Shown here: positions 29,893 through 46,496 of the stretch, piece after piece
Position numbering within the stretch: the first letter of the stretch is position 1
Layout: each line of letters begins with the position of its first letter
NCBI GenBank assembly: GCA_038143065.1
Contig: JAYQLI010000038.1
Span: 1 to 64,000 of the forward strand
DNA length: 64,000 nt
Reading direction: 5' to 3'
From: Rhodospirillales bacterium
GTDB taxonomy: Bacteria; Pseudomonadota; Alphaproteobacteria; Bin95
Program-made: the position numbers and the translations under genes
The notes under the pieces: model-generated
Seen by the model: the letters and a program-made list of their open reading frames with translations, nothing else
The model's database searches: none
What the model was told of the DNA's origin: nothing

Positions 29893-32225
29893 TTACCCTT
29901 TTGTAGTCCTGATTTGTTTGAGAGATTTTGCACCAAGTCGGATAGCTGCCCTTCGAACTGCGGCCGGTGATGGATTCTGCGTCGGATACAGAGCGACGTA
30001 CAAACCGAGTAGTTGCTGACTGGATGCAACCTCGGAACCAACGAGGTGGGCTGGATTTGAGAAAACGTCCGTGATCCATTCTTCCAACGCGCTTAGGCTT
30101 TCTCCAATCATTTGCACTTTAGAGCTTGTAAGCGGCGCTGGGGCGGTTGGCAGAAACTCATCGAGGTCGACATTATTGAGCAGATGACAAAGCAAGGCTT
30201 CAAGGCCGCCATTGTCGCGCCATTCAACAAAACTTCGATAAAAGCTTTGCTCAAGGGGCTGTGCGGTGACCTCATGAACGAAAAAACGACGGTCCTCTTT
30301 ATCGATGTGAATTGCATCATCATGGTTTGACAAAAAGACAAAGCTTGCAAAGTTTTCGACTGAATATTCAGGTTGGTGCTTTTCGTTAATGGTTACACTC
30401 GTACCAGTGATTAAGACCTTAAGCTGATCAGTTTCAACACGCCGGTCAGATGTCAAAACTTCATCGCCAATGACGAGTACCTTGTTCTTTAGCCAACCAT
30501 TAAAGTCGCGCTTCAAATCGCTTTGCGTGATCGTTTGGGAGTGATTAGATCCAATAATATCCCTGATACACTCAAAGAGTAGGTTCTTACCGACACCTTG
30601 GTTACGGCTCCAGACCAGTAAAGCGGTGTTCATTTTGTTACCTGGATATTTAAGCTTGAACGCAAGCCACCGCATTACATAATCTCGCTCTGAGGCGTTG
30701 GGAAACATGTGCTCTGAAAGCTTTAGGAAAGGGCTGATATCTCCTTTTGCAGGTGTTTTCTCAAGGCCGGTCCACAAGTTAATTGCATTACGAGAAGTAA
30801 TTTCACCTTCCGTTGGATCAAAGACAATGTCACGATGTGAACGGCGGTCACGGTGACCCATCCAAGCTTTTGATTTAGGCATAACCTTTGGCTTGTCTTC
30901 GGAGCCAACGCTTAAAAGATCATTTTGGTATTGAAGGTGCAGTTTGCTCGGCTCAATGAAGTCTTCAAACTCAAAGCGGTAGATGCTTTGTTGCTTTTCA
31001 ACCCACGCATATCTGCTGTTTAACTCGGTCAGCCAGGATTTTGTGTTTAGGGCTCCTACGGGCTTTTTACCGTCTGGTTCTGTTTCCTTGAGTTGTACAG
31101 CCTCGCCTTGAATTGAGCGCGCTTTCTGTGCGCTATTTTCATCCGCAACGGACATTCCCCCCTCACGAGCCATGTAGAACAGAGAGCCGAGTGTTTTTTT
31201 ACTATTTTGGTCTCGCGATGCGTCGCGTTTAAGCGCTTCATGGTAACGTTGCTCGGTGTCGTCGAAGCAATAACTACACATTTCAGGCGTCAGTGACATG
31301 CTAGTTTTATTACATGCTGCATAGAGTTCACCCGAAGCCCATTGATGTGCAATTTGGCGACCTCCTTCACCCAATTCTGTGGCAAGAATACTGGTCACAT
31401 CGAACCAATTGTGGCGAGTTCGCGGGTCAATGTATGGAAGGCATTCTTGGACGCGCAGCATTTTGTCTGCTGTAAATATGTTGATATCTAGGGGCGAATT
31501 AACATGGGGCGGGCGTGGTCCTAGTTGCCAATCTTTGTCTCTAATGGTCACGTTTAGTGATTTCGCCGGTGACGCTCTCAATGCATAATTTGATTGCGCA
31601 ATTTGTTGAATAATTGGTTTACGATCGATCCATTGATCAGGAGTAATCTGTAGCCCTGGTGAATTCACTATAGTCACCAAAAATGGCGTACCGATTAGCC
31701 CCTTTTTCTTATTCACCTTTTGGTGGGGAAGCCAGGTAAACGCATGATGCGGGTTAAGTCATTGATTGATTTGTCAGTATCCCAAGCTTCAATCATCTGA
31801 ATTTGCGCTTCTTTAAACTCAGCGAGCGGACAATCTTTGACAAGCCAATAGTTGTGATAGCGGCCAGGACTTGTCTCTACGACAATGTGTGGCGAATATT
31901 CATCAATGGGCTCTTGAGGAGCCCCATCCGTATCAACAAAAATCGCTCGGACGCGTTTTATATTGGCCTCTTTACGTCCACTAAAATCAGTTTCGTTTAT
32001 TGTGACAAAGACCCCAGCACCCTGTTTGGAAAGTGATGTTAGAGTTTGCCAATGCTTTTCAAGGCTTCCATGAAGCACTTTGTTCAATTTAGCAGACTTA
32101 CGATCGTGATTATCATCCAGCGTTTGAAAGGTGAATGCGGTAGCCTTTGGGTCCAAGAGTTGGAGAAAGCGCTTGGCCATCTCTAAGTCTGGGGCCATTG
32201 GCGAGTTTTTGACATGCTGTGTCAT
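29893..32225 (-). CDS. Primase-helicase (RepB-type primase + PriCT-2 + DUF5906/SF3 helicase); probably one gene split by indels, true 3' end probably near 29750
   Basis: AIFVDTD/ETSPGRYHNYW/RIMRLPG primase motifs; WFDV...W PriCT-2; QGVGKN Walker A, IGDE, FLSN. Confidence 0.85.
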
Positions 32226-32285
32226 GTGTCTGTTCCTTTCGGGAGGCAACACAAATTTAGGCCACGAAAGTGACGTCAAACTTGG

Positions 32286-32550
32286 TTACTGAATGTTCTT
32301 GTGTTTGTTAGGGCTTAGTTGCCGTTGAGATACGCGCGGACATCTCCAACGCGCCATCGGCTTGAGCTCTTGCCTAGACGCAGGGGCTTTACCAAGTAGC
32401 CCAGTTGTATGTCGCGGTAGATTGAAGATCGACTTCGTGATGCGAGCGTAGCTTACCATTTTTAGGTCAATCAGAGCGTCATTTGGAAGTGCCTCAAAAG
32501 TTCGAATACAATCTAAGTGCACAGCCAATTTATTTAGGTTTTGGTCCATT
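32286..32550 (-). CDS. AlpA family excisionase (frameshifted)
   Basis: FEALPNDALIDLK...SRSSIYR...SSRWRVGDVR across frames; adjacent to the integrase. Confidence 0.7.
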
Positions 32551-32789
32551 TTCATGGCCTCCAATTTAGTTCAACTGTGGGAAGGCAAGCTTGCTAAGCT
32601 CCAGCATTATCTGGTCAGCTTGGCTAATTCCGCGATGCGGTAGGAATGGGTGTGCAGCAAAGCGCCCATGTATTTGCCTGTCTGTATTGTGCCAGATAGA
32701 CCCAGAAAATGTCAATATGAAGTATTCAATATTTTTAGGTTGACTAAATCTTGTGCTTAACGGAAGTTTTCGAAAAAATCTTCAATCCC

Positions 32790-34020
32790 TTAATGCGATG
32801 AACGTATCTGGATGACAGCGCCCGGAGCATCGATGGCTCGTTCGCAATATTCTGCCCAAGCAGCCATTAACTTTCGGCGTTTTTCCATCAGCGTTCCTCT
32901 TGCATATGCGGCTTCGGCCTTATCCTTGAGTTGATGCGCAAGCGCGTGCTCAATGACCTCTCGGGAATGCTGTCGTTTCGCCAGCCCAGTCTCGGAAAGT
33001 ACTTCTGAAACCATGAGTCGTGACTGGCACTTCCATGCGCTTCAGAACTGCACCAAGTGTCATGTCAGACAAAACCCCACCTTGCGCTGCTTTAAACACG
33101 ATTTCATTACCTTTTCCCTGTGGGATTTCCGTCAGAATTTCGACCGCACGATCTGAGAGCGGGACGCGATGCTCTTTACGCGCTTTCATTCGTTCCGCGG
33201 GAATTACCCATTCGCGCTTTTTCAGATCAAATTCTTGCCACGTCGCTCCACGAACTTCTCCTGAACGTGCAGATGTCAGAATGAGGAACTCTAGAGCAAT
33301 TGCCGCTGTCCCTTTGCGCTCTCTCAGTCGTTTAATGAATGCTTCAATTTCATGATACGGCAGTGCTGGGTGATGTTTCACGACGCGGATCTTAGAAATG
33401 GAAGGTAGCGCGTTCTCTAAATTCCCCTGCCATCGAGCAGGATTTTCGCCATCTCGGTGTCCATGTACCTTAGCCCAGTCTAAAACCTTTTCTATCCGGC
33501 CACGTGTGCGTTTAGCCGTCTCGGGCGTTTTGTGCCAAATAGGCTTAAGAACCTCTAAGACATGGGCCAATTCGATGTCGTCCACTGCGAGATTACCCAA
33601 GACTGGCAGAGCATGTGTTCGAAGGGTATTTTCCCATTGTTGCCGATGTTTGGCATTGCCCCATTCGGATTGCTTGTCTTCCAGAAACTGACGACAGGCA
33701 TCCACAAAAAGTAAGCGCTTGCGTTGCGCTGCTCGCAACTCATCGTTACGGACTTTGCGTTCCTCGATCGGATCTATCCCAGCTGCAATCTTGCTTCGTA
33801 GTTGCCGAGCAGCTTCGCGTGCCATTGCTAGCGTAACTCCTGGATAACCACCTAAGCCGATATCTCTAACCTTATCTGCGATCTTAACCCGCAATATCCA
33901 AGAGCGCGCTCGCCCTCGGATTTGTAATCCAAGTCCTGGAACGACGCCGACAGCGTTAAATCCAGTTTTGTTAAGGCGCGAAACTTCGAGCGCAGACAGT
34001 TCTTTTGCGATCTTTGGCAT
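32790..34020 (-). CDS. P4-like tyrosine integrase of element B (one frameshift)
   Basis: GLGGYPGVTLAMAR, KHRQQWENTL, ARSGEVR, HGFRSTFRDW and LAH...AAYARG motifs. Confidence 0.92.
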
Positions 34021-34193
34021 TACCCAATATCCTACCCATTATAAAAATTGAGATTGGCTGAGACGCCGTGATACAGTATGTGACAGCTTTTATTTAATAT
34101 AACACATAAAAACAGTAACTTAAATATTAAATAAAGTGTTCATATGACTACACATGAGCTTATATATACTCAGATAAGTTAGATGCAGGGGGA

Positions 34194-34315
34194 CACCTCC
34201 TCCGCCACTTAGCCCAATACCAACAGGGCCAGACCTAACAAGTAAGCATCAGATAATACTCAGCTTTTAAACTAGGCGCTCATTGTGCCGCATCTGATTA
34301 CTGACCATTATGCAG
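34194..34315 (+). repeat. Left copy of ~120-bp inverted repeat containing a tRNA(Ser-like) 3' end
   Basis: CACCTCCTCCGCCA...CTGACCATTATGCAG is the reverse complement of 35529-35649 with a few differences. Confidence 0.9.
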
Positions 34316-35565
34316 ACCAAATTACTGACCAATCGAATCACTTACACGTTTATTCGGGGCGGCTATTACTATTTTTCCCGACGAGTTCCCGCTGATTTGC
34401 AGGGCCATTATCGCTACCCTCGTGTCGTCCAAGGGCTTCATACATCCTCCCCACAAAAAGCTCGGGTTCGGGCGAGTATTGAAGCAGCTAAGCTTGATGC
34501 CTACTGGAGCCAAATGCGCCGAGCTAGGGTCTGATGTCCTTCGAGGTTTTGTCACTCGTTAAGGGGCTACAGATGCCCCAAAGAGAGTTAACGACGGCGG
34601 ATACTTCTAGTCCTGCTGCAATTGTTGGTCAGCCTGAAGATGCACCAACATTACTCGATGCTTTGCAATTATATTTAGGTCAAAGGGTAAGGGTCGCCCG
34701 AAAACATTTCGGTTAGCTGCAGAACGAGTGTGCAGATACGTTATTGAACTGGCAGTGGGAATAAGCCTTTGACGTCATATACTCGTAGCGATGCTCTAAC
34801 ATTGAGGGATTGGCTTGTAGATCGTGGCTTAACTGGCTCCAGCGTCACTCGTAACTTCTCCTATGTGAAAGCGATCATAAATTTTGCCCTTTCAGAATTT
34901 GCTTTGGATGCCCGAAAACCATTCATTGGTGTGTATCATGATCGAACAGCAGGGGTATCCACTCGCAAACCAATTCCTGTTGCTAATATTTTCAAAGTAC
35001 AGCAGGAAAATGCAGGACGATAGATGATGATATGCGCTGGTTGGTCGCCCTGATTTCGGACACTGGTATGCGGCTTGCTGAAGGGGCAGGGTTGTTTAAA
35101 GTCTGATCTTCGAAAATTAGACACTGATATCCTTGCGTCCGTATCCAAAAGCACAATTGGCGAAACCTAAAGACCGCCAGCAGTGAACGTATCATACCCC
35201 TTTGCGGTCAAGTTTTTATGGGCTGCTGAACGAATAGTTGGATCAGACCCAAACTCTCAGTTTGCTTTTCCAAGATATAATCAGCAGGAAACTACGAACG
35301 CCAATTCCGCCAGTGCTGCATTAAACAAATGGCTTAAGCAATATGTACCAATCGGATGTACGTTGCACAGTTTCAGACACTCGATGCGGGACATTTTTCG
35401 ATCAGTTCAATGTCCATCCGACATTGCGGACCAAGTAGGTGGTTGGACAACCGATGGAGTAGGGCAGGGGTATGGCTCAGGTTATCCGCTCGATGTGCTG
35501 CATGGGGGAGTGGATGGAAAAGGCAATCCTGCATAATGGTCAGTACTCAGATGCGGCACAATGAG
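34310..35565 (+). CDS. DUF6538-domain tyrosine recombinase (multiple frameshifts)
   Basis: RGGYYYFSRRVPADL N-terminus; DTGMRLAE, RNLKT..S.R.IP, HSFRHSMRD, GGW and GYG.GY motifs. Confidence 0.85.
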
Positions 35566-35649
35566 CGCCTAGTTTAAAAGCTGAGTATTATCTGATGCTT
35601 ACTTGGGGAGTGGCCCTGTTGGTATTGGGCTAGAGTGGCGGAGGAGGTG
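35529..35649 (-). repeat. Right copy of ~120-bp inverted repeat containing a tRNA 3' end
   Basis: Reverse complement matches 34194-34315. Confidence 0.9.
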
Positions 35650-36077
35650 GGATGTCGACGCCCCCCGCTCTCCGTCAGCAAGCAGCTAACACTCTGATAT
35701 TATTGATAGCAGCATTATGAGTTCATAGCAATGAGGCGCAAAATTGTCAGTAATTTGGTCTTGTAACGCAGGATTACCCCTGCGAGTGCCACCCCACCCC
35801 TAGGGTTATCGTAGACAGGCCTGATCCAAGATTAGGATTTGAGTATCGTCAACTGGCTGCATCAGGCTATTTCATTGGGACTTGACGGTTTTGCCTGTGC
35901 GGTAGGGTGACTGGTCCTGTGGCATCGTGCTGGCGGCTACTAAACCGATATATGATACTACTGTTGGGTGTTGATATTCCCAGGATATCGTTATCTTAGC
36001 ATTAGCGAGGGCTAGGCATGGGCCACAGGGGTGTACGAGGTAAGAATATATGACCTCTGCCAGTGATTAGCCATGTA

Positions 36078-36210
36078 AGCCTGTAAACCACTTTAGGCTA
36101 AGTTTCGGGGTTAGATGACCGCCTTGTTGATCCTTAAAGGGTCAATGGTTCCTATAGAGATATATAGGAACCTGACCCATTAACGGTATTACTCCCCGAA
36201 ACTTCAGGCT
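36078..36210. other. Long imperfect hairpin in non-coding DNA
   Basis: Nested stems AAGTTTCGGGG/CCCCGAAACTT, GGGTCA/TGACCC and GGTTCCTATA/TATAGGAACC. Confidence 0.7.
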
Positions 36211-36703
36211 CAGGCCCGATAGAGATACTCAACTGGTTTTCGTGATCACTTGAAGCTTTGCTGATGGTACGAACCGCATATCTACGTTGATAAATCCATT
36301 TAAAAGGCTCGACGGAGGACTAGCCAAAATGACTTTGGCCTATTAATAATGAGTTTCGGCCGAGTGCAATAGTCAGTCAGAATTTCGTAATCATGATTAT
36401 CTCATATCCTAGAATGAAACAGCTTAAAGGTGTGTTTTTTGGTGCGATCAGATAATTATGGAACAAAAAATCCAGAAAAATGTAATGACTAAATATCCTC
36501 GCTGCAGGATTAAATCTTTGTACAAGTATCATGGTTTTATTGTCGATGCTAACAGCCGATATCATCAATCGCATGGAGACACGTGGATACACAAGCCATC
36601 GAAACATCTACAACATTGTTCTTGTGCGCTTTGATTGCCGGGATGAAAGATGGATCGAAACACAGAATTGTAATAAACAAATCAGGCGTTTGCTGATTGA
36701 AAA

Positions 36704-36940
36704 TATGAAAATTTTAAACAAAGTTTTTGGGGTTGCAAAAGTTTTGACACGAATACTTTGATGTTGATGGTGACGGCGAATTAAGCGCTTCAGAACGCAA
36801 TAATGCCATAAGTAAGATACTTGAGAAGATCGATACCGATGGTGATGGTCAGTTAAGTGCAGATGAACGGAACACTGCTAGAAGCATTGCCGTACGTGAA
36901 AAAATTCGTGAAAGGCTCTCCAACTGGTGTAACAATTAAT
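36704..36940 (+). CDS. Small EF-hand domain protein (frameshifted; start uncertain)
   Basis: FDVDGDGELSASER and IDTDGDGQLSADER, two canonical EF-hand loops in one frame. Confidence 0.65.
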
Positions 36941-38152
36941 GCTGTCACAGTCGAGGTTGACCAGTATTGGACGCTTTCACCTCATGGAATTTCGACAATA
37001 AAGGTAAAGTGACATTTGTTTGGTGCTGTGGTGTGAAACTATGTATCAGCAATGATGTTTCAGGCAAAGAAACTGACCTAACTTCGAAATGATAAAATTG
37101 CTTGTTTACTGCATTCCCTTGTTCCATTTTCCGTTGACTTTTTATCCAGGTGATCAAATGCGCCTGGAAAGTTAGTCGCGCTCCCACATTTTTGCACCAA
37201 TGAATTTGCGCTTATGATTTGCATCGGTTTGTGTGTCGAAGAATGAGTTCATGAAGATCTTATCCGACAACTATAACCTAGTTAATTGCTGAACCAGCTC
37301 GATTAGCCTGCCAGGGGCGCTTTCCATCGGCATTGAAATATTTTTAAAGAATGGGGCCTTTTGAAGCTGATAAATCTTGCGCTCTTAACAATCAAGCGCA
37401 ATCCATTTCAGCATTGCTGAGATTAGGCAGACGAAGCAAAGTACCATAAAGACCAGTCTAGAGCTATATACAGAAAAGCAGGTGTAGCATCGTTCTCAAC
37501 TAGTGAGTTTGCTAATCGAAGAACTACTAAAAAATGGCGTGGGAATTACTGCGTCTATTCAATTTCAAAACACAACAAATTCGGATGAATCAATGCCAAA
37601 TTATCTTGGATGCTTTTCATGAAAATACTTACTTGAAGCTTGCGCTGCTCCAAGCGTTAACCCCAAAAATCTTAGAAATTACGGAGAGTGATGCAACGGC
37701 AGGTAAGTCTGTGATAGAACATGAGCAAGAAAAATATATTTGCGGGTCAAAAGGTGGTTATTTTTCGACAACTCTTGGTTGCTTCGAATAATTAATCGCC
37801 AATTATCGCCTATTGGCCCCTAAAGTTTTGGCTAAATAAAGCTGGCATTAGAAGGTGTAGAATTATATCAGTAACTTTTGTTTCCTGAAGGCGGTTAGTC
37901 TGATAAAAATCTTGTCTATGACGTGTCGTATTAACCTTCTGAACTCCGTAAACTTACATCCCTCACCAAACCTTCTGCGGTCCCTGATTTAGACGTGCAG
38001 CCGTTTAAAATCGGCAAAGACTTCGTTGTTGTAGAAGGCCAGTATCTGATTTGAAAAGCCTCGCCAACTTGAGGATACGTTTGAATGAGACCCACTCAGG
38101 CGATCATAAGCTGAGGTCACTGATCGGGGCGGGCAAAAAAACCATGTATCTC

Positions 38153-38982
38153 GCGGCAATCAGATTAAACCGCCTTGCCTGATTGCGATAGGAACAAAAA
38201 GCTTTTTAGCCATGCTAATTCTTTATCTTTCCGTTATTCAAAACCAGCCCTGAATTATCAACTTGCAGTTATGCTGTAACCCTAGGGGGTTCCCACCTCT
38301 CACTGAGAAATGTGAAGACCTTCTGCATGAACGCGGTGTCGATGTGAGCTATGGATCTGTTCGGTACTGGTGGCATCATTTAATATCTCAGTTTAGCAAG
38401 CCAGATCCAAGACGGAGAGGGAATGCAGTCTAGTAAATGGAAGTGGCACCTGGATGAAGTCTTTGTGAAGATAAACGGGGAAAGACATTACCTGGCGTGC
38501 AGTCGATCGAAGGTGAGGTGCTCGAAATATGTAATAAAAGAAGACAAAAAGCAGCTTTAAAGTTCATGAAGAAAGCCATGCGGTGCTTTAGATCGCAATG
38601 AGATCTGTGGAGATAAGCTTGGGTCTTACGGGGTGCAGCAGCAAAGAGAACTGGGCTGTTCAGAAAAGCAGGTTACAAAGCGATGGGCAAATAACAGAGT
38701 TGAGAATTCACACTTACCGTTTCGACGACGCGAAAAGGCCATGCTTCGATTTAGACGCATGCACAGTCTACAGAAGTTCGCTTCAATCCATGCCTCGTTT
38801 CACAATCTATTCAACTCGCAAAGGTTACTCTCAAAACGCAGTACATTTAAACTTAACCGTGACGCTGCTCTCACCGAGTGGCCGTCTGTAGTGATCCAAC
38901 AGAATATACTCATCAATGAATTTTGGATGCCAGTTCTTGCCCAAGCAAAATCGAACAGAGTGCTCAATTTTTTGACAGCCCC
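38153..38982 (+). mobile_element. IS6 family element (transposase frameshifted)
   Basis: KTSPE..QLAVML, WHLDEVFVKING, NNRVENSHLPFRRRE; right IR-like TGACAGCCCC. Confidence 0.85.
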
Positions 38983-39027
38983 AATCCGACCACTCCGCTG
39001 ATGAGATTTTCGCCAGTAGACGAGTTA

Positions 39028-39995
39028 CTAGGGGTCTTTTCTGGGCATGACAGTCTCAAGTGTTTCGAGGGCATGCTGAAATTGCTCCTCTTTGATACGG
39101 CGAAGTGTTTCAGCGTCTTCGACACCGATAGAGTGGTTTATGGTCTGGCCTGCCGTCATGCGCCCGAGCCGGGGTAGGTCGGCAGAGATCACCGTGGCGA
39201 TCTTGGGGTATCCGCCAGTGGTCTGGCGGTCGGCGAGCAAGATGATCGGCTGCCCGGTTCCAGTCACCTGAATGGAGCCTGCAACGATGCCATCGGAGGC
39301 GATGTTGTAAACCCTCAGCATGCGACAGGGTGGCGCCATCCAATTGCAGGCCCATGCGGTTAGACCTTGCCGTGACCTTGTATCGGGAGGTGAGGAAAGT
39401 CCGGAGCGCCGGGGTGTGAAATAGTCGTCCTGTGGCCCGAGGATGACGCGGACAGGGCCGGGACATTGGCCAGCACGCTTTGATCTGAGCGCCGTTCCGC
39501 ACCGGTGGTCGGGTTCTCGCCGATGGCAGCGCGTCGCCTTTGACAAGCGCTCGGCCCTGCACGCCGCCCATTTTGCCGGGCAGATAAGTCGAGAGGCCGC
39601 CCAATTCGGGGACGATGGCAAAGCTGCCCTGGACGCCAAGGTAGCAGACGCCCGTGTCGCGGGTCGCGCCGATGCGGAACCGGGTGCCGGGTGACAGGAG
39701 GGCGCTTTGACCTGTGGGGATCGTGGGTCGCGGTCCCGCTGATAATCTCGATTGGGACCTGGGTTCCGGTAAGCGCCACCCGTGCCGGTCCGCCTGTCAC
39801 CTGCAGGGTGGGGCCCACCATCCGGATTTCCAGTGCTGCCGCGTTTGGCGGATTGCCGACCAGGGCGTTGGCAAGACGCAGGGCGTCGATGTCGAGCGCG
39901 CCCGAAACCGGTACGCCGAGCGCCTGGTGCCGAAACGGCCGGCGTCCTGGACCGTGGTCAGTCCTGGGTGGTCGACAATGAGCCGCGCGCCGTCA
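39028..39995 (-). CDS. pxpC: 5-oxoprolinase subunit C (frameshifted)
   Basis: TTVQDAGR, GPQDDYF and GQPIILLADRQTTGGYPKI motifs. Confidence 0.85.
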
Positions 39996-40710
39996 CAGCA
40001 GGAACTCTCTTGTGCGGCGAACCCGCCGGTGCGCAGGCGGGCTTCGATTTGATGGTAGTCGTCCAGCCCGACCTCGTGGAACTGCACCAGATCGCCCGGA
40101 GACAGAAGCGCCGGTTGTTGAGCAGTCTTGTCGAAAAGCAACACCGGCGTGCGCCCGATGATGTGCCAGCCGGTGGGGTTGGAATTGGGGTAGATCACGG
40201 TTTTGCCGGTGGCGGTCAGGACCGCGCCTGCCGGGACGTTGGGCACTGGGTTTTCGCGGCGCGGCAGTGCCATGTTTTCCGGCAGGTCGCCCAGATAGGG
40301 CTGGCCCGGAGCAAAGCCGAGCATATAGACGGTCTGCACGGTGCTGGTCATGGCCCTGACGATGTCGCGCGGCGCGCGTTTTGCATAATCGGCAACGGTT
40401 TCGAGATCCGGCGCAAAACCTTCGGCCTCGACACAGATGGGAAACGACCAGCGCGCCGCCAGCGCCGCTGGCGGCCGCCCGCCGGCAGCAGCGGCAATCG
40501 CCTTTTTCAAGGCGGCCTGAGTTGTGGTCAGCGGGTCATAATGCACCAGAGCGACAGATAGGTCGGCACGACCTCGATCGGCTCCAAGTGGGGTCGGCTG
40601 CGTTGATGTTGGCGCAGAGTTGCAGGACGCGGGCGCTGGTTTCGGGGGCGACATCGGTTCCCAGCACCACCCGTGAGACCGGTATCGCCGCTTGAAAGAA
40701 ACTCCATATC
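39993..40710 (-). CDS. pxpB: 5-oxoprolinase subunit B
   Basis: VYMLGFAPGQPYLG and PTGWHIIGRTP motifs. Confidence 0.85.
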
Positions 40711-40734
40711 CACCCTCATAAACGACTGCCGCCG

Positions 40735-41507
40735 GGTCAGTTGAGCGCCTGCGCCATCGGTTTGATCTCAATCCCAGACGCTTCAAGCGCGCGTCGAACT
40801 TCGGCAGCTGCTAAGTGCGCGGGCTGTCACCATGAACGCAGATGCTGTCGATGGCCACCTCAATGCGTCTGCCCGACAGGCTTTCAATGGCGCCGTCCTG
40901 AACGAAACGCACCATGCGCTCGGCGGCTTCCCGAGGGTCTTCGATCATCGCTCCCGGTGTTCCGCGTCGAACGAGCATGGCGTTGTCGTCATATCCTGTC
41001 AGCAAAGATTTCGCGGGCCACTTTCAGGCCAACTCTTCACCGGCGCGTTCAAGTTCGCTGTTGGGCAGGACCAGAAAGATCAGCTCGGGCGCGACGCGCT
41101 TGACCGCACGGGCGGCCGCCATAGCAAGATCCTTGTCTACGCAGGACATGTTTCCAAGCGCGCCGTGAATCTTGTAATGGGTGACCTCGGCACCGCAGGC
41201 GCGCGCGCCATGCCCTGGATGGCACCGGTGGGACCTGATAGATCAGCATTTTTTCGATCTCGACACATCCTGAACCACGATCCGGCGGCGGCCAAATCCC
41301 CAGAGATCCGTTGAAACCGGGATGTGCCTGGATCCCGACGCCGTTGGCCTTGGCCATCTCGATGGTGCGGTGCATGACCACCGGATCGCCGCCGTAGCCC
41401 GCGAGACGTTGGCCGAAGAGATCACCTTGAGGATCTCTTCGTCATTGCCGATCGTGTAGGCGCCGAAGCTTTCGCCCATGTCGCAGTTCAGGATCGATAC
41501 TTGCCAT
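40735..41507 (-). CDS. pxpA: 5-oxoprolinase subunit A (LamB/YcsF, frameshifted)
   Basis: LNCDMGESFGAY...SSANV, AHPG, HGAL and SICVHGD motifs. Confidence 0.88.
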
Positions 41508-41516
41508 GTCGGTTCT

Positions 41517-42816
41517 CTATCCTTTGAACGAAACCACTCCGGGCAGATAGGTTACAATGCCCGGGAACAGGGTGATGAGGGAAGACCATGGCCACCATGA
41601 TCAGGAAAACGGCAGGGTCGCCCTGGCAATCCGTCCGATTTTTTCGCCGGTCAGCCCCTGAATGACAAACAGGTTGAACCCGACAGGCGGTGTGATCTGG
41701 GCCATTTCGACAACGATCACCAGAAACACCCCGAACCAGATCTTGTCAAAGCCCGCATGCAGGATCAGCGGCAGGGTGATCGGCAGGGTCATGACGATGG
41801 TGGAGAGGCCTTCGAGCACCATGCCGAGGGATCGCGTAGAAAACGAGCAGCGCGATCAGCATGAAGGGTGTCAGGTCCATTGCCGCGATTTCGGCGGAGA
41901 TGGCGCGCGGTACGCCGAGAAAGCCCATGGCGCGCGACAGAAAAATTGGCGCCGGCAATGATCAGGCCGATCATCGAGATCGTGCGGATGGCTCCGAAAG
42001 CCGCCATCTACCAGGTTGGCCCAGGTCAGTGCCCTGTAAAGCGCTGACCAGCATCGCGCCCAGCACGCCAACGGCGGCGGCCTCGGACGGGCTGGCATAG
42101 CCGCCATACATCGAGCCGATCACGACCAGGATTAGGAACAGCACCGGCCCGAGATGGCGCAGGGCAAAGATACGTTCGGTCCAGGTGAAGCTCATTTTTT
42201 CGTCCGGAACTACGTCGGATCTCAGGGCCGCACTGATCGCGAGATACCCAACATAGGCCCCAGCAAGCAGGATGCCGGGTATGATGCCCGCAATAAACAG
42301 CCGCAGGATCGACGCCTCGGCCAGAACCCCGTAGATGATCATGATGATCGATGGCGGGATCAGAAAGCCCAAGGTTCCTGCGCCCGCAAGTGAGCCCATG
42401 GCCAGGTCTTTGTTGTATCCACGATTCAGCAGTTCGCTCATGGTGATGCGGCCCACGGTTGCCGTGGTCGCGGCGGAAGATCGAGACTGCGGCAAACAGC
42501 GTACATCCCAGAACGTTCACATGTAGCAAACGGCCGTGTCGTTGGTGGTCCACGGCGTCAGACCCGAGAAAGCGACGACGATAGCTTCGAGCGAAACAGG
42601 ATTCAGCCATCAGAATGAACATCGGCAGGGCGATGAGTTCCGGGGTGGTTGAAACGTTCCAGGTCAACTGCCCCATCAGCAGATCGATAGGCATGTTTTT
42701 GAAGATGGCCAGGGCGACGACGCCAACGATGTAGAGGCCGAAGCTTATCCAGACACCGGTGCGAGGGCAAGCGCAAGAAGGACAACCAGAATGGTGAGTG
42801 AGATATAACTAATCAT
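41517..42816 (-). CDS. TRAP transporter large permease (DctM)
   Basis: AGAGTLGFLIPPSI and ITPPVGFNLFV motifs. Confidence 0.88.
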
Positions 42817-43345
42817 GTCTTACGCCTCATTCGACCGTGAATTTTCGCGGATGGCGTCGTCTTCCGGCGCTTCACCAAGGAGGAGGCGGATGTGGCGCAA
42901 TGACCATCTGAATCGCCAGCAATGCACTGTTTGAAAGCGATGACAGCCTGCGGGATCGCTAATGGAGTGGCCTCAATGGTGGAGATGTGCTCCCGCACGA
43001 GTAGGAACAAGCGCAGAACTGAAACCATTGCATGTAGAAAGTAAATCGAAAACACAGCTCCATAGCTGTTGCGAAGAGCCTCCATGATCCGCGTATTACG
43101 TTCGCTCAAACCCACGCAAGAGTGCCACACGTACGTGCCCGCCAGTCCGCAAAGTATAGGGGGCGCCAAGAAAACAGCGCACCCGTATAAGTAGGCAGCA
43201 TATTCCCGGGCAAAGCTCAATGAAGCGCTAAAGAAAAGACCTTGCTATTATTTCGAAATGATTAGCGCCGCAATTCCGAAAACCAGGATAGCAGCAAGCC
43301 CTGCAATCCAACGCGAAACCGTATCAAATGTGGTGAGAATACGCA
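42813..43345 (-). CDS. TRAP transporter small permease (DctQ, frameshifted)
   Basis: EYAAYL, GGHVRV and TPLAIPQ motifs; lies between DctP and DctM. Confidence 0.7.
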
Positions 43346-43409
43346 AATTGTTGCCTCCGGTGCGGATTGGTCCGATGCGCGGATGGGACCGGACCAACTG
43401 TATACCCTG

Positions 43410-44387
43410 AATCAGCGACCTGTCGCGGCTTAAAAAACTCATCTAGAACCGGTCTGGCGTCTGGAGTTTTGGCGAGGAAGTCGCCAATCATGTTTGCCGT
43501 CGCCGCCCGCATCGCTGCGATCATACCGTCTGAGACATTCGCGGTGGCGAAGCCCGTTGTCAGCTAGATGGCCATTTGGCGGCTTCTTCTGCTTTGGAGA
43601 TCGCCCAGAACTCAGGTTCCAGACTCGCTGCTACTGATTCAATGGCAGCACGATCAGCTTCGGTCAAAGCGTTCCAGCTATCGGGTTTCATTTGATTTCT
43701 GAGATAGCGAATCAAACGTGGCCCGTGGGGTAAAAGTAGTCTAAGAATTCCCAAAATTTGCCATCTACACCCGAGCTGGCAGATGTGGTTACTCCGTCGA
43801 TTGTGCCTGAAGCGAGCGATGGCACGACTTCGCCCCAAGGCATTTGAACGGCTGTCATGCCGATCGCGTTGAATAGCTCGGTTGTAGTGGTTGCTTCGAA
43901 TTTTTTTACACCCGACAAATCGCTAAGCGTATCGGTCTTAACCTTCGAGAAGATGCCAGGTGCGGGCCAAGGGACCATATAAAGAACTTTTTGGTTGTTG
44001 GCTGCTGCAACGTCGTCAACAACTGGTCGGAAAAACGTGTGTAGCTCGGCCAACTCGTCGTAGCCATTCACTAAGAAGGGGATGGACTCAATACCCAGCA
44101 TGGGCGCTTCGCCAACCTGTTGGCTAAGGTAAACATCGCCGATTGGCACCGCTGTCGCGGATGGCACCCAGCATTTCGGGTCCGGAGAAACCAAGCGAAC
44201 CGCTTCCGTGTACGGTGATCTGAACCCGACCTTCGGTGGCTTCCGCTACGGCTACTAAAAAGAATTCGCGTTCTTTGTGTGGAAATTACCATCAGGCCAC
44301 GGCAGCGACATATCCCAATTTTCGGCAAAGCCGTGCCGGTCAGTGACGCCGCTGTCAGGCAGCTATCGTTTTAGTGAAGAATGTCAT
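43410..44387 (-). CDS. TRAP substrate-binding protein (DctP, frameshifted)
   Basis: WPDGNFH and QMPWGEVVPSLASGTIDGV motifs. Confidence 0.85.
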
Positions 44388-44500
44388 TAGAAAACCTCCG
44401 TTTCAGTTTTGTGATGTTATGCCAATTTGGCGTTGGATTAATTTTGCGAGTGCTCTTTATCGGAGCCTTTAGATACCTCTCTCAAGCGGCCGAAGTTACC

Positions 44501-45701
44501 TCATTGTAGGCTTTTTCCCAGACGAGGATGCCTTCGTGGATTTTCTCTGGTGGAACTGACTGTAGGCAAAGCGCAAAAAATTGCCGGGATTTTCGTTTGG
44601 GAAGCATAATCTGCCACTGCCGACTTCGACCCCATGCTCCACGGCACGAGAGGCGACGTAGTCGCCGGAATTGCTTTCAGGCAGCTCAGCCCAGAGAAAG
44701 TAACCCCACTGGGTGGATCGACTTTTGGCTTCGGCAGGAACTCATCCAGTGTCCCTGATCCATCGATCGATATCTCGGCCAGTTTGTTCCGGATCGCATC
44801 ATATGATCTGTCACCAAGTCGATATGCTCGGCCAGTTTGTTCGACCGATCGCATCAACAATGATACGCTGCGTGAACGGCAAGAGCTGCCATCGGATTTC
44901 TGAAGTCCCATCCGTCGCACAAATCTGGCGCGCCGTGGCAATCGCCCAGCCAATCCTAAGGCCGGGGGCATGACCGCCATCGGATTTCTGAGGTCCCATC
45001 CGTCGCACAATCTCGGGAACCGGATCGCCCGATTACCCGGCCATCTGTGTCCATGGATTTGATCGGTGGGACAGGATCTTCCTCTAACGGATACGGCGAT
45101 AGGGATCATCCTCAAGAATGACGAAATCATATTCCTTGGCCAGTCGCAGAAGCTCCTGCGCCGCGCCACCGACATGGTGATCCTGGTCGGGTTGTGAAAA
45201 TCCGGGATGTCGAATAGGAGTTTCGGCAGAGATTCACCGTTGGCACGCATGGTAGCCAGCCGGTTTTCAAGAATGTCGGAGCGCATACCCTCGTCGTCTT
45301 GGGGGATCGAGACAAACGTCAACCCGTGGCTGCGCAGGCACTGCAGCGTGGTCATGTAGTCGGGGCAGTCACGATGATCTAATGCACCGGGTTAAGTGAA
45401 TCGCAGGAGGAGATCGGTGGCATGCTGGCGCTGTTTGTAATCAATACCTGGTCCGGAGTGCAGCGAATGCCATCCGCTGCAACGTAAGACGCGATCGCCT
45501 CGCGCAGGTCTTCAATCCCCATCAAAGGACCGTATTGCATTGACTCTGCGACAAACGCCGACGCTGCCTCCGTCGCCTCGCGAGATAGGTCAGGAAAGTT
45601 GGGGGTAAACTGATCCCACGCTCAGCATGATAACCCCAGGAGCGTGATCATACACCGATTTTCCCAATACCAGCACGTCGTGCGAAACGGTATTGGCCCA
45701 T
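44501..45701 (-). CDS. PLP-dependent class I/II aminotransferase (frameshifted)
   Basis: MQYGP, IPDFHNP, EDDPY and APGLRIGW motifs. Confidence 0.8.
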
Positions 45702-45839
45702 ATTGTATTCCCTTGAAGATTGTTTTGTTGGTTGAACCACTAAATAACAATGTTATGCATTATGCTTTATAATTAAACAAGTCAAAATGATAATATAGAA
45801 TAACCATCAGAATTCATTATCTAATTCTTTGGTAAAATT

Positions 45840-46496
45840 TTACACGTTGAGACTTTTAAGATATTGAATTGTAGCCCTGGCCGTTGAGGTTGCGCTTGAA
45901 TTCCGTATAACTTCCATCGCCAGATTCACACGCTGCAATCAGTTTTCTGTGCTCAGATGTTGAGGTTTAAGCGACTGGTTCATTCCAAAGCGCATACATT
46001 GGAATGAGGACTTCAACGAGAGAATTGAACCATGTAGGCTTGACGTTGCCAAAGCCTTAGAATATTGTGTTGTGAAATTCATTCAAGGCATTTATCTCTG
46101 ATTGATCTTGTCGTATTATTATTGTCTTAACTGCTCGTTGATACGCTTGAGTGATGCGACAAATTCTAAGTGCTATTTACTGCTGTGAGCCTGACTGCCT
46201 CAATTTCTAGCATCCGACGCACTTTAAGATTTGAAGATGTTTTGGGTCATTTCAGCCACCTTGGATTGATTGGTGCGAATGTCTTTCTACAATACCGTTA
46301 CCAGTAATACGATGATCGCCTCACGGATTGGCGTAACTTTTAAACCCAGGTCTTCTTCAATCTGCCTTTGTGAAATCAATTGGCCCGGGCGGTAAATGCC
46401 GGTTTCAATTGCATTTCTAATAAATGCCTCTGCGACTTCACGCTTTGTCATTGCTACGGGGTTGTTGGTAGATAAAGATTTTTTTATCGGAGGCAT
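45840..46496 (-). CDS. GntR family regulator (frameshifted)
   Basis: IRNAIETGIYRPGQ...TPIREA wHTH; EFHN and SEH FCD residues. Confidence 0.75.

Follow-up and report, generated by a model that had tools for sequence, protein, structure and literature searches.

An inverted repeat around a decayed DUF6538-type integrase gene suggests tRNA-targeting islands with an inverted internal attachment site in marine Alphaproteobacteria

The window examined here comprises 64,000 nucleotides (nt) from a Rhodospirillales bacterium (assembly GCA_038143065.1, contig JAYQLI010000038.1, positions 1 to 64,000; the contig is called C38 below). The host is an uncultured marine alphaproteobacterium; the named RecA sequences nearest to its own, at 85-86%, are labelled 'MAG: Alphaproteobacteria bacterium'. 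At 34194-35649, a frameshifted gene for a tyrosine integrase of the DUF6538 type is enclosed by two inverted copies of a sequence of about 120 base pairs (bp), the whole forming a unit of 1.45 kilobases (kb). This unit is probably the integrase segment of a decayed member of a group of islands, widespread in marine Alphaproteobacteria, that target transfer RNA (tRNA) genes and whose inverted copies apparently recombine, flipping the segments between them. The departure from known islands lies in an internal, inverted attachment site of the attP type and in the two nested pairs of repeats that come with it; in other respects the relatives are tRNA-targeting islands with a tyrosine integrase. 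A common integrase family of marine Alphaproteobacteria carries, in this way, a built-in and conserved inverted copy of its own attachment site. What the window itself contributes is modest: a dead copy that exposes the design.

The left arm of the repeat (34194-34315, + strand) and the right arm (35529-35649, − strand) are reverse complements that BLAST aligned as a single joined inverted repeat, with 94.3% identity over 123 columns. A repeat search resolved the same region into three inverted pairs: 34239-34315/35529-35605 (77 nt, 99%), 34210-34231/35611-35632 (22 nt, 100%) and 34194-34209/35634-35649 (16 nt, 100%). The arms differ in the alignment by one 1-nt indel, one replaced patch of 5-7 nt and one T/G mismatch. 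As the runner-up found by the repeat search within 32000-38000 was an inverted pair of merely 32 nt at 75%, the repeat is far beyond chance. Both arms carry CACCTCCTCCGCCA as their outer 14 nt (34194-34207, + strand; 35636-35649, − strand) and ATGCAG, the start of the integrase gene, as their inner 6 nt. The left arm is a site of the attL type, with the core at 34194-34209, a P' arm that holds the first arm-type unit at 34299-34307, and the integrase start at 34310-34315. Three tandem 12-bp arm-type units with a GACCA core span 34296-34333 on the + strand (TACTGACCA at 34299-34307, GACCAA at 34315-34320, TACTGACCA at 34323-34331). The repeat terminates inside the second of them, and the second and third units exist on the left side only. 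The right arm, a putative P' arm and core of an inverted internal attP-like site, also encodes on the + strand the last 11 codons and the stop codon of the integrase gene (35529-35564). A preliminary description of this DNA had reported the near-identical reverse complements, the tRNA 3'-end core at their outer edges and ATGCAG at their inner edges, the three 12-bp units continuing the left copy and the entry of the gene's 3' end into the right copy, and all of this was confirmed. A segment bracketed by inverted recombination sites, the hallmark of invertible segments, is thereby present in the window. The marks of a transposon or insertion sequence (IS), namely several copies, target-site duplications and unrelated insertion sites, are absent, and the unit was found by BLAST to be single-copy in the 4.63-Mb genome.

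The core that adjoins the integrase gene is identical to a tRNA 3' end, as an attL core should be. In the right copy, CCCACCTCCTCCGCCACT is shared with the end of the tRNA-Ser(UGA) gene at one related locus (L050), with 18 of 18 positions matching. The window contains no tRNA gene detectable with ARAGORN, and a search of 33900-36100 against Rfam returned nothing meaningful (three matches, all with E > 5). The counterpart of the left arm in relatives abuts a real tRNA gene, where it reads as the P' half of attL. The end of the tRNA-Sec gene, selC, was also considered as the source of the core and was rejected, the selC gene of this genome being off by one base while the tRNA-Ser(UGA) ends of relatives match 18/18. 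The tRNA-Sec gene in question (C35:2209072-2209168) has an end that is one nucleotide off the core of the DUF6538 element and of two P4-like copies described below; it may be the site that these elements use, or once used, in this host.

The integrase gene (34310-35564, + strand) is distributed over several reading frames: 34310-34531, ~34534-34716, 34769-35020, ~35020-35180, 35183-35500 and a tail at 35493-35564. The piece at 34310-34534 matches the Pfam family DUF6538 (PF20172) over its residues 12-71, with E = 1.4e-20 and 73 bits against a cut-off of 27, which assigns the gene to the integrases with an N-terminal DUF6538 domain. It is the one piece with a Pfam match; the separate pieces gave no match to PF00589 at E ≤ 0.01. 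The intact homologue at locus L013 matches PF00589 with E = 1.5e-11. Stretches that hold the catalytic motifs (DTGMRLAE, HSFRHSMRD, GGWTT and GYGSGY) are recognisable in the window, but lie in different frames with stops between them, so that the R..K..HxxR..(H/W)..Y signature of tyrosine recombinases does not occur in one open frame. Three-frame translation and a tblastn comparison with an intact homologue of 409 amino acids (aa; P0006) indicate that the gene is a pseudogene of a tyrosine recombinase/phage integrase. When environmental relatives were aligned to the window, indels fell at 34681, 35114, 35130 and 35503, which are the positions of the frame breaks. The recombinase had been assigned to the DUF6538 type in the preliminary description; the assignment was right, and the correction to be made is that the gene is frameshifted. 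The intact homologues (P0006, P0007, P0008, P0042 and the L013 gene) end in ...EW(M/V)EKAILH(N/F)GQYS(D/N)AA(Q/R), and the tail in the window, LHNGQYSDAAQ and a stop, is coded inside the right arm. That the right arm encodes the tail typical of the family gave the first hint of the repeat being a family trait and not a chance feature of one locus.

Sequence conservation does not stop at the outer edge of the right arm. Conserved element sequence reaches about 580 bp past the repeat, to ~36230, with 75-77% identity to loci L013 and L009. This part (35650-36230, − strand) comprises a T-arm-like hairpin at ~35650-35670, the motif CAGAGTGTTAGCTG at 35683-35696, two arm-type units at 35744-35760 and, further out, a conserved non-coding region designated Z. 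The window and seven loci from the genome scan (L009, L011, L012, L013, L014, L019 and L032) have in common, outside the right arm, CAGAGTGTTAGCTG on the − strand, the T-arm-like hairpin and the core, with two tandem arm-type units further out; in 8/8 loci the motif lies behind the gene and on the opposite strand to it. Because these features are shared outside the right arm, that arm reads as the P' half of a complete attP-like site (P arm, core, P' arm) placed in inverted orientation behind the integrase gene. The Z region, about 580 bp of non-coding sequence beyond the P arm, contains a perfect hairpin with a 10-bp stem (36147-36171) and gave no Rfam match in the part that was scanned; it may be an origin, a transfer origin, a promoter or a small RNA. 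In relatives, Z is part of a repeat of 569-777 bp around the cargo.

Relatives were collected with the C-terminal piece of the integrase, which yielded 2965 proteins at E ≤ 0.001 among 3841 candidates; the closest are up to 87% identical and carry both PF20172 and PF00589. A scan with one genome per species gave 29 loci, nearly all from marine Rhodobacteraceae, and a metagenome scan gave 80 further loci, the best 80 of 278 confirmed relatives among 593 pattern matches. Another set consisted of 401 genomes from the family of G061, the genome that holds L013: the integrase was present in 24, and 23 of the 30 loci fetched were examined, the partial matches L149-L155 being omitted and four of the 23 duplicating earlier loci. 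A tRNA gene co-directional with the integrase gene ends about 95 nt upstream of it in 17/29 genome loci (11 Ser, 5 Arg, 1 Leu), and tRNA-Thr and tRNA-Phe genes are also targeted in the 401-genome set. An inverted repeat that brackets the integrase gene, detected by comparing the 5' region with the sequence behind the gene, occurs in 54/109 loci. The proportion rises to 38/49 where at least 0.8 kb is available downstream, and to 22 of the 27 loci with a full integrase gene, at least 100 nt upstream and at least 2.7 kb downstream. It was found in 18 of the 23 loci from the 401-genome set. A search of other DUF6538 loci for the same architecture, proposed in the preliminary description as a check, has thus found it widely. 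The layout occurs in complete and isolate genomes and is kept where integrase identity is as low as about 53%, and across five types of target tRNA. The arms of relatives are mostly 95-126 nt long and 97-100% identical; relative to the stop codon, the right arm lies anywhere between an overlap of about 30 nt, the arrangement of the window, and a distance of 3.6 kb. Where such a spacer is present, extra genes sometimes lie between the integrase gene and the internal site, for instance a 178-aa open reading frame (ORF) in L012 (5207-5743) and ORFs of 269 and 143 aa in L058 (4484-6100); the small segment, that of the integrase, can therefore hold cargo too. A search for element DNA in 60 relatives of the window genome itself returned a single match, of 226 nt at 67%.

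The anatomy of the whole island could be read in the three relatives that offer enough sequence (G061, G062 and G065). In all three, a direct copy of the P arm and core, which is the canonical attR, lies 7.3-10.8 kb downstream. By self-comparison, the internal site and attR form an inverted repeat of 745 bp at 99.1% in L128, 777 bp at 99.6% in L129 and 569 bp at 96% in L130. The order along the island is attL, the integrase gene, the inverted site (P'-core-P-Z), cargo, and Z-P-core. Two inverted pairs are nested in this arrangement: one of about 120 bp, made of attL and the internal site, around the integrase gene, and one of 0.57-0.78 kb, made of the internal site and attR, around the cargo. 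Among the cargo proteins of the L009 and L013 islands are a TPR protein and another of about 1075 aa; the latter matches, at its N-terminus, the PHROG annotations 'DNA primase' (E = 7.9e-21) and 'replication origin binding' (E = 7.6e-17).

One sign that the inverted copies exchange sequence is concerted evolution of the arms. Of the 40 loci compared, the window counting as the fortieth, 28 have two arms that resemble each other more closely than the left arm resembles that of any other locus; eight of the remaining loci are ties between near-identical loci and four are lower. The own arms of L014 are 98% alike against 69% for the nearest other locus, and those of L109 100% against 72%. In almost every arm listed for 39 relatives, the inner boundary of the repeat immediately precedes the second GACCAA unit. 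It is constant at about 53% integrase identity, with or without a spacer on the other side, and the site at the 5' end of the integrase gene always has an additional one or two arm-type units compared with its counterpart. One ancient origin, followed by maintenance through gene conversion, would account for the shared boundary.

The segments have also been found in both orientations. Among the 54 repeat-bearing loci, the side of the tRNA gene, IS or tandem element is on the left and the P arm on the right in 23, and another 14 and 4 agree by their one classifiable flank. Two loci are reversed on both flanks (L057 and L075), and 11 are unclassified. Judged by one flank, L053, L097, L103 and L105 are reversed too. 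L138, on a multi-megabase contig, is reversed as well. Synteny identifies three of these cases as true inversions: L105 and L009 have the same tRNA-Ser gene and 3 kb of chromosomal flank, inverted, at 89.8% over 3030 nt; the integrases of L103 and L055 are 98.7% identical, and the upstream flank of L103 is the reverse of the downstream flank of L055; and the tRNA-Phe flanks of L138 and L145 are inverse to each other, at 73.7% over 1459 nt. The L009 and L013 islands carry the cargo segment in opposite orientations: the gene for the orthologues of 1079 and 1071 aa (81% identical) and the TPR gene swap sides. Both the integrase segment and the cargo segment thus occur in either orientation among relatives. 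A further locus that was left unclassified, L159 (G300:C1:2986957-2991108), has P-type arms on both outer flanks, with units repeating ATTACTGACCAG on one and CGTAGACCAAA on the other, and a repeat that extends into the integrase coding sequence; it may consist of two elements head to head.

It is proposed that the inverted copies recombine, either by action of the integrase at the cores or by RecA on the repeats, and that the segments would flip as a result; confidence in this exchange by integrase or RecA is moderate. Since the repeat always stops before the second arm-type unit, a flip would transfer the integrase-proximal arm units from attL to the internal site. More weakly, flipping may toggle which of the two is the complete attachment site. 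The preliminary description had supposed that the cassette inverts itself. Both orientations do exist among relatives, and to that extent the idea holds; the integrase of the window is broken, so the copy in the window cannot flip itself. The arms in the window, 94-96% alike against 97-100% in most relatives, have drifted. No second copy of Z or of the P arm is present in the genome, nor a further copy of core and P arm that could serve as attR, and the cargo and attR of this copy are therefore gone. Frameshifted integrase, drifted arms, missing cargo and attR, and a P4-like island in tandem together mark the window copy as an inactive fossil.

A number of observations weigh against such flipping, or limit what can be drawn from the comparisons. 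The tRNA-to-integrase orientation dominates, with about 53 loci against 7 when all sets are summed; flipping must therefore be rare, biased or selected against. Orientation differences are known between genomes only; neither a circular form nor flipping within one population nor a dependence on an enzyme was seen. The reversed cases come mostly from metagenome contigs, and assemblers can mis-orient identical repeats; the safest are L075, with arms 82% alike, L057, with arms 96% alike, and L138 with its large contig. Likewise, with a repeat of about 750 bp to be crossed, the cargo orientation hinges on the assembly of each genome. The repeat was absent from 5 of the 27 informative loci and is therefore not obligatory. 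A scan for promoters and terminators placed no site in either arm, with counts at or below the shuffled expectation. In public sequencing runs, the best share of the sequence words of the stretch was at most 34%, and the alignments obtained were with short Logan contigs of relatives.

The most serious alternative, though unlikely, is that the internal inverted attP is upheld by RecA-dependent gene conversion alone, as a tolerated by-product of an ancient aberrant event, with flips as neutral accidents. Arms of 120 bp and of 570-780 bp at 96-100% identity are good RecA substrates and RecA is intact in the window genome; the strong dominance of one orientation and the five informative loci that manage without the repeat would fit as well. 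Under such a regime, however, the layout would hardly be expected to persist to about 53% integrase identity and across five tRNA types, always with the same inner boundary, or the internal site to retain a full core, P arm and arm-type units. The arms, moreover, have drifted in the window, where the integrase is dead. This persistence, the intact internal site and the drift alongside a dead integrase suggest that upkeep of the repeat is tied to the function of the element.

It is improbable that the inverted copy is mainly regulatory. It would then act as a second integrase 5' region, with integrase-binding units and possibly a promoter, convergent to the gene; antisense transcription, a 5'/3' RNA duplex or an integrase-bound loop would hold both integrase expression and excision down. 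The extent of the arm, which always spans about 95-120 nt upstream of the start codon and the start itself, lends itself to this idea, as does the overlap of the window-type arm with the last codons of the gene. No sigma-70-like promoter was predicted in either arm, however, and in many relatives 0.3-3.6 kb of sequence, with further genes, separates the copy from the end of the integrase gene. A regulatory role would also leave the second, longer repeat around the cargo unexplained.

The preliminary description had concluded that the unit is a lone, minimal, self-mobilising cassette of 1.45 kb. This conclusion is not borne out: the right repeat forms part of a full inverted attP-like site, relatives have cargo and an attR, and the unit is single-copy. 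An autonomous cassette with terminal inverted repeats, moving or flipping alone, is very hard to credit. The ends of the repeat do coincide with the ends of the gene, and many metagenome contigs carry the integrase only and break at the repeat, but assemblers yield short contigs at such repeats in any case. The unit was always found at a tRNA end, an att core or a tandem island, the P arm and Z are conserved outside the repeat, and a canonical attR lies beyond the cargo in relatives. The autonomous cassette was rejected for its failure on copy number and context. Finally, there is next to no chance that a fold-back or chimeric read made the right repeat, for although the low content of long ORFs on C38 could mean an error-rich contig and the junctions in the window were read from the assembly, this artefact was rejected on the ground that a fold-back would yield identical arms and not arms that differ at several positions including a replaced patch, that the two outer flanks differ and each matches relatives, and that the layout recurs in complete and isolate genomes.

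The islands with the inverted internal site share much with canonical tRNA-targeting islands that use a tyrosine integrase of the P4 or lambda type: an integrase gene about 95 nt downstream of a co-directional tRNA gene, a core of 16-18 nt equal to the tRNA 3' end, P and P' arms with tandem arm-type units and, in the relatives, a direct attR at the far end. They differ by the third, inverted and nearly complete attP-like site behind the integrase gene and by the two nested pairs of inverted repeats; we know of no described element of the P4 or lambda type with an internal inverted attP-like site.

A parallel to the nested repeats is the 2-micron circle of yeast, in which Flp-mediated flipping amplifies copy number. 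There, the recombinase lies in one of two unique segments split by long inverted repeats that hold the recombination site (FRT), and both segment orientations occur. In the maps of L128, L129 and L130, if excision proceeds by attL x attR recombination, the product would be a circle in which two inverted repeats, each about 0.9 kb long and with a core of its own, separate a small segment with the recombinase from a large segment with a replication-type gene, as in the 2-micron layout; in two relatives this gene is the one with the PHROG-matched N-terminus. The islands differ in being integrated in a bacterial chromosome at a tRNA gene and known from integrated maps, and their integrase, which has arm-type sites, shares no more than the superfamily with Flp. 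The window copy has no second repeat pair of this design. By analogy, the islands could be bacterial counterparts of the 2-micron circle, the integrase flipping segments during replication started by the primase-like protein, so that many copies would arise before re-integration or transfer; this idea is speculative and judged rather unlikely.

The Hin/hix system of Salmonella resembles the islands in having the recombinase gene inside a segment bounded by inverted recombination sites and found in both orientations. Hin is a serine invertase acting on 26-bp sites, and flipping switches a promoter. In the islands, by contrast, an integrase has sites of the attL and attP type, the two arms share one 5' region, and no outward gene that would be switched is evident. 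Strand-biased circularizing integrative elements of Vibrio reportedly bear short terminal motifs as well as several recombinase genes and use targets other than tRNA genes, and no internal inverted attP in them is known to us. They are like the present islands in being marine, in using tyrosine recombinases and in departing from the classical island design (PMC9345347). The term 'DUF6538' was not found in the literature search. Queries on inverted attP and similar terms retrieved, as judged from titles and the openings of abstracts, only engineered constructs for cassette exchange. No description of an attL/inverted attP/attR layout for tRNA-targeting islands was found in the titles and abstract openings of the open literature. 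The layout adds a layer to the behaviour of islands, which apparently can flip and perhaps lock or amplify. Its repeats break or mis-orient metagenome assemblies around these integrase genes, and the family offers natural tyrosine recombinases with defined inverted sites.

On its tRNA side, the element in the window is adjoined in tandem by a P4-like island (29893-34208), and no intact tRNA gene abuts. The P4-like integrase gene (32790-34208, − strand, including an upstream region that ends in the same core) is frameshifted near its 3' end (32950-34020 and 32790-33014) and matches the Pfam families Arm-DNA-bind_3, Phage_int_M and Phage_integrase. The primase genes of this island lie at 29893-32279, with a RepB_primase piece at 31713-32279 and a DUF5906 protein at 29893-31716. 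The upstream region of the P4-like integrase gene and the core recur 60 kb away, at C38:~94054-94235, with 85% identity (159/188); together with the 5' end of the integrase gene, this second copy spans ~93900-94235.

About 2 kb to the right of the unit lies an element of the IS6 family (~38200-38882). It is 80% identical to an IS in L013 (3104-3844, DDE_Tnp_IS240) that truncates attL there. The sequence upstream of the left arm of L013, which recurs at this position of the window, had been a candidate P arm and was rejected as such, being an IS6-family transposase (DDE_Tnp_IS240). At the same position, the att core is adjoined by an IS end of this type in L011, L013, L055, L056 and L077 and, by eye, in L080 and L053. 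This suggests that the IS prefers the core as a target or else that the insertion was inherited.

On C38, ORFs of at least 150 aa cover 0.25-0.69 of the sequence per 8 kb; six further small contigs have a cover of 0.36-0.70, and the first 400 kb of the 2.86-Mb contig C35 reach 0.83. The small contigs either hold many broken genes or contain more errors. The G+C content is 0.51-0.61 in 38001-46000 against 0.39-0.49 in most of the window, and this block is probably foreign DNA of other origin.

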